This document shows, one piece after another, positions 1,689 through 59,036 of a DNA stretch of 64,000 nucleotides. The stretch lies in the NCBI GenBank assembly GCA_964426385.1, contig CAYRQF010000001.1, positions 167,939 through 231,938 of the forward strand, read 5' to 3'. Position 1 is the first letter of the stretch; every line of letters begins with the position of its first letter. The notes below the pieces were generated by a model. That model worked only from the letters and a program-made list of their open reading frames with translations, searched no databases and was not told the DNA's origin. Position numbers and translations under genes: made by a program. The stretch is from an uncultured Candidatus Saccharibacteria bacterium. Its GTDB lineage: Bacteria; Patescibacteriota; Minisyncoccia; Phycocordibacterales; CSBR16-119.

Positions 1689-2681
1689 TTATAACCCTTG
1701 ATCTGCCATAGAATTGAGTTCGAGCCTCTCGAGGAATGCTATCTGTGCGAGTCTCGGCTCTGTCATATTTTCCGCCCATGTGCGAAGCGCATCGTTCTGG
1801 AGAGCGCGTGAGTATGAGAACGCTACCTGCCATGGCAGAGGCTCGAGCTTGGCTATTTCACGGAGATTATTCGCCGCCTCATCTGGTGTCTGTCCGCCCG
1901 AGAGGAACACTACCCCGGCAACCTTCCTAGGAACATTAGCGGTCAACATTTCAGTAGTGAATTTGGCCACCGTTTTGGCATCGGCACGGATAGTAGCGTC
2001 ACCGCCGGATATGACCATGCTGGTCTTCAGTATCAGACCCTCGAGATTCACAAAATATTTCGGAAGTTCTTCGAAAACGATTTTCATTACCCTATCGGTA
2101 ACCAATTTTGACTTCTCGATACTGTGCACCCCATCAAGCATAACTTCAGGCTCGATTATCGGAACTATGCTTTCGTCCTGACAAGCCTTGGCATACCTGG
2201 CCAGGATTTTTGCATTCTCTCGTATCGCGTCGTCTGATGGAGTCGTTGCAGAGATCTTGAACGCCGCACGCCACTTCGCGAATGACGCACCCATAGACTT
2301 GTACTCCATGAGCCGGCCTGGGAGACCGTTCAGACCCTGAGTAATGTACTCCTCCGGTGATCCCGGCATCGGGATGAGTCCTTCGTCTACCTTGATACCT
2401 ACCAGGATACCTTTCTTCTCGAGCAACTTGGCGAACGGGACACCTTTTTTTGTAGACTGCCTGATCGTCTCGTCATAGAGGATGACTCCAGTGACGAAAT
2501 GCTCAATGTCGGGTGTCGTGAGTAGTAACTCTCGCCATGTTCGACGCATCTCTTCAGTCTGGGGCACACCGAATGCCTCGAAGCGTTTGTTGCAAGTATT
2601 ATTACTTTCGTCTGCCGCAAGAATCCCCTTCTTAGGTTCAACAAGACGATTAGCTATTGTGTGTAGTCGTTGGATATCCAT
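1689..2681 (-). CDS. fba: Fructose-bisphosphate aldolase, class I
   Basis: 330 aa; the KGILAADES motif near the N-terminus is the class I FBA hallmark. Confidence 0.9.
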   Translation of the reverse strand: MDIQRLHTIANRLVEPKKGILAADESNNTCNKRFEAFGVPQTEEMRRTWRELLLTTPDIEHFVTGVILYDETIRQSTKKGVPFAKLLEKKGILVGIKVDEGLIPMPGSPEEYITQGLNGLPGRLMEYKSMGASFAKWRAAFKISATTPSDDAIRENAKILARYAKACQDESIVPIIEPEVMLDGVHSIEKSKLVTDRVMKIVFEELPKYFVNLEGLILKTSMVISGGDATIRADAKTVAKFTTEMLTANVPRKVAGVVFLSGGQTPDEAANNLREIAKLEPLPWQVAFSYSRALQNDALRTWAENMTEPRLAQIAFLERLELNSMADQGL

Positions 2682-2685
2682 CCCA

Positions 2686-3129
2686 TTAGTTATCTAATTT
2701 TAAAATTCTTCTCTTGTGACGCTCGTCTCCAGAAAACTTTGTCTCGAGAAACAAGTCTACTGCACGCTTGGCCTCTTGTTCAGAAATAAATCGGGCGCCA
2801 AGAGAAAGAATATTTACATCATTGTGCTCGCGAGCAAGTTTTATGATTTCCTCCTGACCACCGTAGTACACAGCCGCTCGTACACCAAAGAGTCTGTTAG
2901 CCTCTATCGCCTCGCCGGTTCCTGATCCACCGATTACAATCCCCATGGCACCAGAATCAACTTCAGCGACCCCTTCAGCAACTAGGGCAACAAAGTCTGG
3001 ATAATCGTCTGCAGGATCTAAATGGTCGGGGCCCTTGTCCACAACTTCGTGACCCATGAGTTCAAGGTGGCTCACAAGAACCCTCTTCATCTCAAACCCG
3101 GCATGATCTGATCCAATAAATAGCTTCAT
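2686..3129 (-). CDS. rpiB: Ribose-5-phosphate isomerase B
   Basis: 147 aa; MKLFIGSDHAGFEMK... matches the RpiB/LacAB family N-terminus and length. Confidence 0.9.
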   Translation of the reverse strand: MKLFIGSDHAGFEMKRVLVSHLELMGHEVVDKGPDHLDPADDYPDFVALVAEGVAEVDSGAMGIVIGGSGTGEAIEANRLFGVRAAVYYGGQEEIIKLAREHNDVNILSLGARFISEQEAKRAVDLFLETKFSGDERHKRRILKLDN

Positions 3130-8276: not shown

Positions 8277-8621
8277 TTAATCTTTTTTCTTGGTTACGTG
8301 ATCAGCTATCCAGTTCAGGACTGAAACGATGAGCGAACCGAGGAATGCTGCCATGAATCCGTCGACAGTCATCCCTGGGACAAGTCCGGAAACGAACCAG
8401 AAGAATAGAGCGTTAAGTATGAGGAGGAAGAATCCTAGAGTGAGGAGCGTGATAGGTAGTGTCAGAATCTTTACTATCGGCTTCACGGCAACTTGGATGA
8501 TGGTAAGAGCCGCACCGGCGATAACTATCGAGACCCAATCAGCGAGCTCTATCCCTGGAACGAAATAGTCTGCGACAAAAACCGCGAGTGTGAGAAAAAT
8601 GAATCTGAATAAAATCTTCAT
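8277..8621 (-). CDS. Four-TMS holin-family (Phage_holin_4_2-like) membrane protein
   Basis: 114 aa with four hydrophobic helices; the VPGIEL...LTLPITLLTLGFFLLILNAL...VPGMTVDGF pattern resembles the 4-TMS holin superfamily. Confidence 0.7.
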   Translation of the reverse strand: MKILFRFIFLTLAVFVADYFVPGIELADWVSIVIAGAALTIIQVAVKPIVKILTLPITLLTLGFFLLILNALFFWFVSGLVPGMTVDGFMAAFLGSLIVSVLNWIADHVTKKKD

Positions 8622-8735
8622 CCCGTTAGAGATAGCAAATTATTAATTTGCGTACCTTTGTTAATCTTTGTAATTAAATAACCTTTGTAAATTATACCTG
8701 ATTAGCGATCTCTCAAACAGAACATCTCTAACGGG
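8622..8735 (-). promoter_or_regulatory. Structured leader/regulatory element, copy 1 (12-bp terminal inverted repeats plus internal palindrome)
   Basis: CCCGTTAGAGAT (8622-8633) and ATCTCTAACGGG (8724-8735) are perfect inverted repeats. The palindrome GCAAATTATTAATTTGC lies at 8635-8651. The element abuts the start codon of the holin-family gene and matches copy 2 at 58824-58938 at 32 of 33 positions. Confidence 0.6.
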
Positions 8736-8746
8736 ATTCATGCCCT

Positions 8747-45945: not shown

Positions 45946-45982
45946 AAGTTGAAACTGCATCCCATTAGAAATTATTAATAAA

Positions 45983-46726
45983 TTACTTGATAATAAATGT
46001 CGCTCGGACTGTAACCATGACGTCCTTGTCGATAGTCGAAGTATCGTATGTTCCGTAGTCAGAGATGTCGATGGAGTTCGGTGGTAGGACCTGGACAACG
46101 CCAGATGTAGCAGTCTTGAGCTTGCCAACGTTTCCACCGGAAGCTTTGGCGATCTCACGAGCTCTATCCTTGGCGTCCACTATCGCATCACCTAGGAGTG
46201 CTACTCGAGCATCAGCAAGCCCTGAATAGTAGTACTGCGCTCCGTATGTCTGGAACAGGACCCCCTCACCAGCAACATCATCGACGAGGTTTGAGATGTT
46301 GGTGATCTTCGTCACATCAGGCGAGTTCACGGTAACTGTCGCGCGTAATTCATAGCGTTTCGGCAAATTCTGTCCATTGTCGTTATAGCTATAGTCCTGA
46401 TTCAGGTTTACAGGAGAGATAGTTATCTCCTCCTCTGTAGCGCCGTTCTTGATAAGAAAAGCTTTTACTTTCTCAGTATCGCGATCTATTTTCTTGTAAC
46501 CGGTCGCGAGATCGAACTCGTTAGCGTATGCGAGGACTGAACCAGAAAGCTTTCCTGAGTCAGAAACGACACTCATCTTGGCAGATCCGGTTGTAGTCAG
46601 AACATTACCACTCGAACGGAGTGATGATAGAAAAAACCCGGCGATAACCGCAACCACTATTAGAGCGAGTCCAAGTACTGCGGCTGCTGTTGCGTTCTGC
46701 TTTTCTAATATTTGTTTTATTTGCAT
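45983..46726 (-). CDS. SIMPL (DUF541) domain protein
   Basis: 247 aa with an N-terminal TM helix; ...YELRATVTVNSPD... and the C-terminal ...VMVTVRATFIIK fit the SIMPL family. Confidence 0.75.
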   Translation of the reverse strand: MQIKQILEKQNATAAAVLGLALIVVAVIAGFFLSSLRSSGNVLTTTGSAKMSVVSDSGKLSGSVLAYANEFDLATGYKKIDRDTEKVKAFLIKNGATEEEITISPVNLNQDYSYNDNGQNLPKRYELRATVTVNSPDVTKITNISNLVDDVAGEGVLFQTYGAQYYYSGLADARVALLGDAIVDAKDRAREIAKASGGNVGKLKTATSGVVQVLPPNSIDISDYGTYDTSTIDKDVMVTVRATFIIK

Positions 46727-56191: not shown

Positions 56192-56222
56192 CCCCGCCCA
56201 CAAAGCGGGGTTCTTCTTTTGT
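56192..56222 (+). terminator. Rho-independent terminator (CCCCGC-CCACAAA-GCGGGG plus T-tract)
   Basis: 6-bp GC stem followed by TTCTTCTTTTGTTT, which runs into the next promoter's -35 box. Confidence 0.65.
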
Positions 56223-57028: not shown

Positions 57029-57060
57029 GTTCCCCGCCCACAAGGCGGGGAACTTTTTTT
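57029..57060 (+). terminator. Rho-independent terminator (GTTCCCCGC-CCACAAG-GCGGGGAAC plus T7)
   Basis: 9-bp stem followed by TTTTTTT. It resembles the terminator at 56192-56222. Confidence 0.7.
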
Positions 57061-57663: not shown

Positions 57664-57699
57664 GAAGCCCCCGCCGATCAGGCGGGGGCTTCTTCTTTT
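57664..57699 (+). terminator. Rho-independent terminator (GAAGCCCCCGCC-GATCA-GGCGGGGGCTTC plus T-tract)
   Basis: Perfect 12-bp stem followed by TTCTTTT. It abuts the stop of the convergent methyltransferase gene. Confidence 0.7.
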
Positions 57700-58441
57700 A
57701 TACAGGAGTTATGAGAAAGGATTTTGATTTGCGATTATATGAACTGATTTCCTCTACCTTTAACTGCGGATTGGCTTCCACGAACTCGTTGAAAGACTCG
57801 TATTCGCCCACCCCCTTGATATCGAGATCGTTCAGCTTCCAATCATCGAGACAGATAATCATCGTGGACTTGATGAGCGGGGCGATGAAGTCGAGCACAG
57901 ACTTCGATGAACTGTATGTATCGCAGTCGATGAAAACTATACCGATGTTTTCGAAGTTATATTGCGCGACCGTTTGCGCGTTCAATGTGTCCTTGTACCA
58001 GCCTCGGACCCAATTGATCTCCCTAGGATCAACGTTTCTCCTCCCGAGACACCTATTCATATCTTCGAACGAACATGTATAGAATCCCTGCTTCCACACT
58101 CCTTCGTCCTCATTCTCTGAGCCAGCAGGCAAACCCTCAAACGCGTCGAATCCAAATATACGAGTGACAACACGACTCTCCTTACAGGCGTGATAGAAGC
58201 TCGCGACCGAGGCACCGTTGAAAACTCCGAACTCGAGATAGTCACCGATCTTTTCACCCTTGAGTTTCTGCAGCTTCCTAATCGCCCTCTCGAAGAAGCT
58301 CTGCAGTCTTTTAGACGGGACGAGATTTACCAGACAGATATCTTTGACCTGACCCATAGTATACGGAGATGTCGGTACAGGAAGAATCCGGCGCCAGATG
58401 CTAAGGATTCTTGTTTTAAACTTGCTGTAACGGAAAGACAT
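57698..58441 (-). CDS. Class I SAM-dependent O-methyltransferase, TylF/MycF (macrocin-O-MT) family-like
   Basis: 247 aa; the LEFGVFNGAS (SAM Gly-rich motif), FDAFEGLP and IDCDTYSS motifs resemble the TylF family. Confidence 0.65.
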   Translation of the reverse strand: MSFRYSKFKTRILSIWRRILPVPTSPYTMGQVKDICLVNLVPSKRLQSFFERAIRKLQKLKGEKIGDYLEFGVFNGASVASFYHACKESRVVTRIFGFDAFEGLPAGSENEDEGVWKQGFYTCSFEDMNRCLGRRNVDPREINWVRGWYKDTLNAQTVAQYNFENIGIVFIDCDTYSSSKSVLDFIAPLIKSTMIICLDDWKLNDLDIKGVGEYESFNEFVEANPQLKVEEISSYNRKSKSFLITPV

Positions 58442-58445
58442 GCGA

Positions 58446-58823
58446 CTAAGAACTCACGATGACACTGAACCCGCCATACGCCATACGATTCATATCAAAA
58501 GGCATCGGTTTGTTCGCATACTTCGGATCATTCATCGTCGGATCCTTCATGACTTTCGCATTGACCGCATCTCTATGAGCTCGCGACTTGAAAAGAATAT
58601 ATGAGAACACCACGAGCTCTCCTGGCTTGGCGTTCGCCATTTTACCAAAAGGCATCAGTACATGTTTCGGTTTCGGATCTTCGATAACACACTCTTTGTA
58701 ATCGAGTGCTCCGTGCTTCATCCAGAGTTTGCTTCCCATCGTCGCCATCTCTTTATAATCCGCAAGCTTCTTCTTAGATACAACCATCACAAAACCGTCG
58801 ACATAATTACCTATATTTTTCAT
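58446..58823 (-). CDS. DUF1428 (YbaA-like) domain protein
   Basis: 125 aa; ...YVDGFVMVV...GALDYKECV...VVFSYILFKSRAHRDAVNAKVMKDP...GGFSVIV fits the DUF1428 pattern. Confidence 0.7.
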   Translation of the reverse strand: MKNIGNYVDGFVMVVSKKKLADYKEMATMGSKLWMKHGALDYKECVIEDPKPKHVLMPFGKMANAKPGELVVFSYILFKSRAHRDAVNAKVMKDPTMNDPKYANKPMPFDMNRMAYGGFSVIVSS

Positions 58824-58938
58824 CCCATTAGAGATAGCAAATTATTAATTTGCACAGCTCGTTTATAATTTGTAATTAAACTTCTAACATCCATTTACCT
58901 AACCCTGTGATCTTATAAACTTCCTGATCTCTAACGGG
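58824..58938 (-). promoter_or_regulatory. Structured leader/regulatory element, copy 2
   Basis: CCCATTAGAGAT (58824-58835) and ATCTCTAACGGG (58927-58938), with the palindrome GCAAATTATTAATTTGC at 58837-58853. The one mismatch in the terminal repeat becomes a G-U pair in the minus-strand transcript. Confidence 0.6.
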
Positions 58939-59002
58939 ACAAGTATAGACACTCAACTTAATAATATGATCTATTTTACCACTTTCTCCATGCTGAAGAA
59001 AT

Positions 59003-59036
59003 AACAAAGCCTCAGTCTCACGACTGAGGCTTTGTT
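59003..59036 (-). terminator. Rho-independent terminator (perfect 15-bp stem)
   Basis: AACAAAGCCTCAGTC TCAC GACTGAGGCTTTGTT. On the minus strand an ATTTCTT run follows. It lies downstream of the gene at 59045-59401. Confidence 0.65.

Follow-up and report, generated by a model that had tools for sequence, protein, structure and literature searches.

The element at 58824-58938 of the window, by which we mean the whole 64,000-nucleotide stretch of DNA analysed here, is very probably a MITE-like non-autonomous transposon whose duplication regenerates the start codon. We assigned it to this class because it has inverted repeats, a flanking duplication, multiple copies, empty sites, copies in both orientations and unrelated neighbouring genes. 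The inverted repeats are terminal, the element is small and without a transposase ORF, copies are dispersed within and between genomes, and orthologous sites occur both empty and filled; terminal inverted repeats and target duplications are the MITE signature, and empty versus filled sites serve as the mobility test (Delihas 2011 review, PMC3184786). MITEs as such are known, and this element is set apart from routine members by its exact start-codon placement with regeneration of the ATG, its orientation bias, its two end variants with different targets, and its in-frame pilin leaders.

The initial annotation had described 58824-58938 and 8622-8735 as the same element, and when we read both sites and aligned them in gene orientation this proved correct, with the sequence blocks it had listed present at both sites on the plus strand. 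Both copies lie on the minus (gene) strand, each flush with the ATG of a gene. Copy 2 (58824-58938, minus strand) is 115 nt long and, with its 13th terminal pair, runs from 58823 (the A of the ATG) to 58939; copy 1 (8622-8735, minus strand) is 114 nt long and with its 13th pair occupies 8621-8736. Read on the plus strand, copy 2 consists of CCCATTAGAGAT (58824-58835), GCAAATTATTAATTTGC (58837-58853), TTTGTAATTAAA (58869-58880) and ATCTCTAACGGG (58927-58938), with equivalents in copy 1 at 8622-8633, 8635-8651, 8667-8678 and 8724-8735, respectively. The minus-strand order in each copy is T-CCCGTTAGAGAT, ~47 nt, TTTAATTACAAA, 13-14 nt, GCAAATTAATAATTTGC, T, ATCTCTAA(Y)GGG and the ATG of the gene. 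The gene-distal terminal inverted repeat of copy 2 (58927-58939, minus strand) reads TCCCGTTAGAGAT, and the gene-proximal one (58823-58835, minus strand) reads ATCTCTAATGGG plus the A of the ATG, with one C>T change from the consensus. Adjoining the gene-proximal arm is a subterminal perfect palindrome or hairpin, GCAAATTAATAATTTGC (58837-58853, minus strand), and the 17-nt palindrome of copy 1 lies at 8635-8651 (minus strand). The 17-mer palindrome matched the window only at copies 1 and 2 (chance expectation 0.17), and an nhmmer profile of both copies recovered the two with E=4e-33 and 4e-32 and nothing else significant, giving no third full copy in the 64-kb window. The RNA folds predicted for both copies had minimum free energies of -35.7 and -32.9 kcal/mol (z -5.0 and -4.3), and this predicted fold is simply the modelled pairing of the 12-13-nt arms plus the palindrome.

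Shorter related sequences were also seen in the window. At 45958-45990 (minus strand), TTATTAATAATTT-CTAATGGG-ATG lies flush with an ATG and resembles the right ~30 nt of the window copies' subfamily, minus 7 nt. It is located 22 nt past the stop of the upstream gene, its ATG is plausible (MQFQLMKNVII...), and judged by its letters it is probably a truncated copy of the element. The exact 11-mer CTAATGGGATG at 2679-2689 (minus strand) also precedes a gene, one that starts with MDIQRLHTIANRLVEPKKGILAADES, and it shares bases with the stop codon of the 147-aa ORF upstream. Exact CTAAYGGGATG occurs four times in the window, always at start codons, and its occurrence at 2679-2689 could be a footprint or chance.

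Pfam matches confirmed the downstream genes named in the initial annotation: copy 2 precedes a DUF1428 gene (PF07237; 58446-58823, minus strand, ATG 58823-58821) and copy 1 a Phage_holin_4_2 gene (PF04020; 8277-8621, minus strand, ATG 8621-8619). The perfect 15-bp hairpin terminator of the upstream 118-aa gene is likewise present (59003-59036, minus strand; arms 59003-59017/59022-59036), and a scan called a terminator-like site there too. It had been argued that copy 2 must therefore carry or follow its own promoter; in agreement with this, the promoter-like TGGTAAAAT, an extended -10 matching the consensus (58973-58981, minus strand), lies between the terminator and copy 2, a point the initial annotation had missed. 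Copy 2 is located between the putative DUF1428 promoter and the DUF1428 ATG, and copy 1 splits the YqeY-holin junction. A Shine-Dalgarno-like motif is missing from positions -18 to -4 of all 54 ATG genes in the window, and many of these genes have TGnTAnAAT 6-7 nt before the ATG; this spacing and the absent Shine-Dalgarno motif suggest, from the sequence, that leaderless mRNAs may be widespread. Elsewhere in the window, the hairpin CCCCGC-CCACAAR-GCGGGG occurs twice (56192-56210 and 57032-57050, plus strand), bracketing ~0.8 kb with a G+C content of ~52% (~40-45% nearby) and with short overlapping ORFs only.

Further copies were collected by two scans. Scan 1 covered one genome per species with TTAGAGAT-N76-106-ATCTCTAAYGGGATG and returned at least 119 loci; scan 2 covered metagenome contigs with CCCGTTAGAGAT-N76-106-ATCTCTAACGGG, did not require an ATG (hereafter the unbiased sample) and returned at least 120 loci. 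In all, collection scans gave more than 240 further copies, itself a lower bound, almost all in Patescibacteria MAGs or environmental contigs. Among the matches listed, the hosts in scan 1 were almost all Patescibacteria MAGs, labelled Nomura-, Wolfe-, Zambryski-, Yanofsky-, Taylor- and Lloydbacteria, Paceibacterota and Saccharibacteria, and the 80 listed scan 1 loci were spread over at least 64 assemblies, several of which had 2-4. Together with its gene content, the relatives also assign the window itself to Patescibacteria (CPR). The element is also multicopy at short range, with two full copies and a likely remnant in the 64-kb window and three copies in 8 kb of L005. Tandem or adjacent elements with only the duplicated 5-6 nt between them were observed at L005 5899-6278, L117 3299-3433 and L108 3018-3416, as well as at L134 (left flank) and L161 (right flank). 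When the whole window was searched against Rfam at the gathering threshold, two tRNAs only were found and nothing at the copy 2 locus, where the best match at an E-value threshold was irrelevant (E=6.3). A literature search on the exact arm sequences, or on MITEs or leaderless mRNAs in Patescibacteria, found no account of the element.

Among the matches listed, the element is 98-130 nt long, with a mode of 114-121 nt. Its arms form a 13-bp terminal inverted repeat, Y-CCCGTTAGAGAT ... ATCTCTAACGGG-R, the constancy of which is partly built in because the scans required the arm sequences. Complementarity extends to the 13th pair in 233 of 239 elements (T..A in 192 and C..G in 41, among the matches listed); the inverted repeat is therefore 13 bp, and in the window its last base is the A of each ATG. 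The interior is A/T-rich, variable and not conserved across copies, without an ORF outside the pilin cases described below. Among the matches listed, 96 of 130 distinct elements, compared with 13 of 130 shuffles, have a hairpin immediately next to one arm, and the listed elements contain 60 different stem sequences. Across 700 stem positions, 686 pairs were Watson-Crick, 3 G-T, 4 A-C and 7 other, with neither a G-U excess nor a strand asymmetry of wobbles. Because the stems vary yet keep pairing without wobble or strand asymmetry, the palindrome looks, from sequence comparison, like a DNA-level feature rather than a selected RNA helix. A weak TAAnnT lies just 5' of the hairpin (T.56, A.53, A.71, T.59). 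Some subfamilies lengthen the long stem instead (AGAGATCGCGGACGC ... GCGTCCGCGTCCTATCTCT), and others have only the terminal CCCGTTAG in common. The latter, with arms CCCGTTAGAAGC/AAGT..., were seen at L017 226-339 and 2424-2538, L050 6714-6833, L054 3769-3886, L072 6210-6323, L038 5207-5275 and other loci; some are just 69-70 nt long, and 6 of 11 lie at start codons, others having non-ATG duplications.

We then compared the two flanks of the element. When the element is read in the direction of the gene, T-CCCG is usually preceded immediately by ATG plus 1-3 nt, a far flank that repeats the first bases of the gene. Among the matches listed, ATG plus 1-3 nt was the same on both sides in 84 of 94 elements (permutation mean 40.7, maximum 53). 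In the unbiased sample, the 4 nt outside the 13-bp ends were identical in 73 of 126 elements (permutation mean 11.9, maximum 22), and 75% of these 4-nt repeats were TNNA (both among the matches listed). The insertion site has the form R-TNNA-(Y) with 4-5 nt duplicated, the length of the duplicate varying from 4 to 6 nt, and the commonest site among the matches listed, A-TGAA or A-TGGA, is formed by the opening bases of a gene. After insertion at such a site, a decoy ATGNN therefore remains beyond the far end and an intact ATG is restored directly against the near end. Copy 1 has the junction ...TAG agggc ATGAA T[element] ATGAAGATT, in which the left ATGAA duplicate (8737-8741, minus strand) marks the old start-codon position, 6 nt past the YqeY stop codon, and the right duplicate (8617-8621, minus strand) is the working start of the holin-family gene. 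Among the matches listed, a -10-like hexamer lies 5-9 nt upstream of the far-side ATG in 41 of 94 elements, compared with 20 of 94 at a control distance, which fits old leaderless promoters left behind by the insertion. Copy 2 has no clean target duplication; its far side is ACTTG instead (58940-58944, minus strand), a recurrent alternative left flank in place of the ATGNN duplicate. This minority class also includes L008, L014, L016, L045 and L074 (at least 5 other copies). In the window the sequence reads ACTTG(T) at 58940-58945, the variant GCTTG-C occurs in L227 and L231, and in L045 and L074 the ACTTG flank starts 6-7 nt after an extended -10.

Orthologous loci of relatives provided empty sites. 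In L129-L132, whose holin protein is 65-81% identical to that of the window, the order ExoX-YqeY-holin-MYG1-Obg is kept and the element is absent from the YqeY-holin junction, where only 1-22 nt and a single ATGAA/ATGAG lie between the YqeY stop and the holin ATG. The same junction in the window reads ATGAA-T[114 nt]ATGAAG, and for copy 1 this amounts to the classical comparison of an empty with a filled site. As annotated, two close homologues of the holin protein (P0121, 132 aa; P0124, 127 aa) exceed its 114 aa by 13-18 residues; the surplus may reflect a start placed too far upstream, possibly within an element. L123 and L124 (DUF1428 90% identical, with the same MIP and 118-aa neighbours) are identical to the window for 108 nt up to TGGTAAAAT, beyond which an unrelated 49-nt stretch is followed by the same ATGAAAAAT, with the element absent. 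The copy 2 element is therefore missing from a close relative; a clean empty site for copy 2 was not found among the relatives compared, L123 and L124 having this different 49-nt leader. In addition, the TylF-type methyltransferase gene downstream of DUF1428 (window 57698-58441) is replaced in the 90%-identical relative by a different gene in opposite orientation (L123 4441-4764), so the DUF1428 neighbourhood is variable on both sides.

Placement was counted in 125 elements of the unbiased sample sorted by flank (among the matches listed). An ATG was found on the hairpin side of 65 elements and on the other side of 12-13, 4 elements abutted GTG starts, and ~43 lay elsewhere; among these matches, ~63% therefore abut an ATG, ~84% of them with the hairpin on the gene side. 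A separate count of orientation gave a similar picture, with ~113 forward and 17 reverse copies among the matches listed, and over the ATG-abutting copies the forward share is ~84-87% and the reverse share 13-16%. Copies away from an ATG are almost all of the C..G type and lie at GTNNAC-like sites (GTTGAC, GTCAAC, GTTTAC; among the matches listed). Some of these lie in -35 boxes followed by a -10 (L220 3468, L221 3555, L187 790 / L214 5717), where TTGAC is duplicated and TTGACA-N17-TAnnnT is rebuilt on one side. The C..G variant also lies inside type IV pilin genes, exactly at G|FTLIE, at L134 2373-2492, L138 3326-3449 and L247 2221-2341. In these three the element is open in frame and encodes a basic leader of 30-38 residues ending in LSLTG; the N_methyl match (PF07963) of L247 is above threshold, and L134 and L138 give only weak pilin-like matches. 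L176 2738-2851 and L190 121-239 combine an ATGAA far flank with a C..G 13th pair and a GTGAA gene start; here an ATG start codon appears to have become GTG through insertion of a C..G-ended element.

Because the start-codon, -35 and pilin signals are all restored by the duplication, survival of copies at these places can be explained. Restoration is not obviously the reason why T..A elements concentrate on ATGAA/ATGGA over the commoner A/T-only TNNA sites. The ~63% at ATG seems more than would be expected from a loose R-TNNA motif in A/T-rich intergenic DNA, and it suggests that more than simple sequence preference is acting, either selection or targeting. Mechanistically, the element would be mobilised by a transposase supplied in trans. 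No transposase or autonomous partner was found in the ~1.8 Mb of fetched loci, which contained neither a 0.6-3.5 kb unit bounded by the termini nor end pairs 250-4000 nt apart enclosing an ORF. Inserted copies would persist at gene starts, -35 boxes and the pilin G|FTLIE since the duplication mends the broken signal, and the orientation bias could arise from selection for expression signals in the core or from directional insertion. If the inverted repeat is read as 13 bp, the A of the rebuilt ATG would be the element's own 13th base, and on read-through from upstream the arms would pair as a 13-bp stem abutting the AUG.

An addition to the MITE reading, not a replacement for it, is that hosts have co-opted the element as a portable gene-start cassette, comparable to Neisseria REP2 or promoter-bearing Correia elements, in which the core would give a promoter and short leader, or a pilin start codon and leader peptide, and the arms or palindrome may bind a host protein. 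We regard this as possible but rather unlikely. The same end faces the gene in ~84-87% of ATG-abutting copies among the matches listed, which could also result from how the element inserts or from reverse copies acting like terminators. Insertion parts an old leaderless-type promoter from its ATG, yet housekeeping genes tolerate it, and in L024, L060 and L118 a terminator-like hairpin precedes the element (together with the duplicated ATG if there is one), and no promoter is obvious in the interval. The in-frame leader ...LSLTG|FTLIE of L134, L138 and L247 and the strictly Watson-Crick palindromes are also consistent with such a role. The TAAnnT 5' of the hairpin also counts in its favour; however, the -10-like signal is weak and its position not sharp, and a simple promoter scan found no sigma-70-type site inside either window copy.

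Several specific signals were considered and set aside. Two readings, one taking the palindrome for a dimeric operator that overlaps a -10 and the other taking TGCTATCTC-N7-ATG for a leaderless promoter, were rejected because the hexamer has no final T and is just the conserved arm. A positioned internal promoter was rejected because -10-like hexamers are scattered through the A/T-rich core with no sharp peak, and the weak TAAnnT was not accepted as a promoter signal because it could equally pair with TATCT of the arm. A uORF starting at the duplicated ATG (MNPVRD...) is not a conserved peptide, as its frame shifts with duplicate length and the lengths lack 3-periodicity. GTTAGAG/CTCTAAC resemble the core sites of an integron attC, but their order is the reverse of that in attC.

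A stronger form of the proposal holds that this mobile family of Patescibacteria actively targets, rather than merely survives at, the first bases of leaderless-type genes. It would then be a portable start module, spread between lineages by some enzyme, which rebuilds the start codon with its own terminal base and brings a promoter and leader, or an in-frame pilin leader up to the prepilin cleavage glycine. We consider this claim unlikely as it stands.

A reading as a cis-regulatory RNA leader (riboswitch, thermosensor or protein-binding), in which the start codon would be masked by the stem and the genes of a dispersed regulon would respond together to one signal, is very improbable and already largely refuted. 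It would account for the stable predicted fold of both window copies, the position of the element flush with the ATG with the A of the AUG taken into the stem, the orientation bias toward the gene, the pairing kept across 60 different stems, and the joint change of the 13th pair from T..A to C..G and of ATG to GTG in L176 and L190. However, the downstream genes have no theme. The 114 proteins beside elements match 172 Pfam families, none with more than 5 members, and the commonest downstream family is glycosyltransferases with 5 members (all among the matches listed); the genes include those for SMC, EF-G/BipA, Toprim proteins, PheT, MurA, Mur ligases, MurG and Dus. Close relatives also lack the element at orthologous loci, duplications flank it, 13-16% of its copies are reversed, and some copies lie within pilin ORFs and -35 boxes. 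Its interior is unconserved, G-U pairs are almost absent from the stems without strand asymmetry, and Rfam gave no match. Since the element inserts before unrelated genes, it is no mark of a shared regulon, and the dispersed envelope- or stress-related regulon hinted at in the initial annotation does not hold, given the 172 unrelated families downstream, the relatives' loci without the element and the two orientations. As for the structured leader proposed there, the 5' position in both genes and the stable predicted fold stand, and the regulatory role is not supported. Finally, chance similarity or an assembly artefact confined to the window, which the mere two copies there might suggest, is practically negligible in view of the 17-mer expectation of 0.17, nhmmer E values of ~1e-32, the independent assembly of the locus in three runs and hundreds of copies in independent assemblies.

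The reading as a MITE-like transposon removes a false lead: what the holin-family and DUF1428 genes have in common is a transposon insertion, not a regulator. Patescibacteria genomes are very small and tightly packed, and the insertion pattern is unusual, in that a repeat family lands on start codons, duplicates them, prefers one orientation and is tolerated before housekeeping genes. The family thus offers a natural system for asking how transcription and translation start once a leaderless gene gains a hairpin-forming leader of ~120 nt, how a transposon finds gene starts, and whether elements rewire expression or, as in the pilin cases, protein leaders. It also matters for annotation, as gene callers may extend ORFs into the element. 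Its interest would be higher if start-site targeting or donation of a promoter or leader proved true.

Compared with known systems, the element is like riboswitch-type leaders in its 5' position, its closing stem beside the AUG and its stable predicted fold, but differs in having no conserved core, no association with gene function and no Rfam match, and in that its presence varies between close relatives. Rickettsia palindromic elements (RPE) are small palindromic mobile repeats that can lie in ORFs and be translated in frame, as the C..G variant is when it forms an in-frame leader in type IV pilin genes. Unlike RPE, most copies of the element lie outside ORFs, exactly at the start codon, and there is no sequence similarity. 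Correia elements have been reported to contain promoters, and Neisseria REP2 and Borrelia IR-A are repeats directly upstream of ORFs with promoter, RBS and ATG context (PMC3184786). The element shares with REP2 and IR-A this position directly upstream of ORFs; it differs from REP2 in its unrelated genes, its absent RBS and its clear mobility signatures. REP2 is not known to have terminal inverted repeats or to duplicate its target, and it belongs with a set of co-regulated genes.

The target duplication is TTAA in piggyBac and 4-5 bp in IS1380, both DDE transposons. The element may resemble both in its CCC ends, 13-bp terminal inverted repeat and short T..A-bounded duplication (TNNA); its termini are Y-CCCG and its duplication is 4-5 nt, 75% TNNA among the matches listed. 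Unlike these families, it has one more base pair, of variable identity, separating CCC from the duplication. We take the likeness to this group as a lead only. piggyBac and IS1380 have themselves been reported to be related (PMC5718144).

The Neisseria Correia elements (CREE/NEMIS) are alike in size (~100-150 bp), in having no ORF, terminal inverted repeats and flanking direct repeats, and in their many copies per genome, often 5' of genes, and in being able to form a long hairpin when transcribed. Correia elements have a terminal inverted repeat of ~26 bp and a TA duplication, and we rejected membership in this family because the length and sequence of the repeat differ and the duplication is ATGNN/TNNA. 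Unlike Correia, the element has a 13-bp repeat of other sequence, an R-TNNA target, a 4-5 nt duplication and a perfect subterminal palindrome; it resides in Patescibacteria, and about two thirds of its copies lie flush with a start codon that the insertion regenerates.
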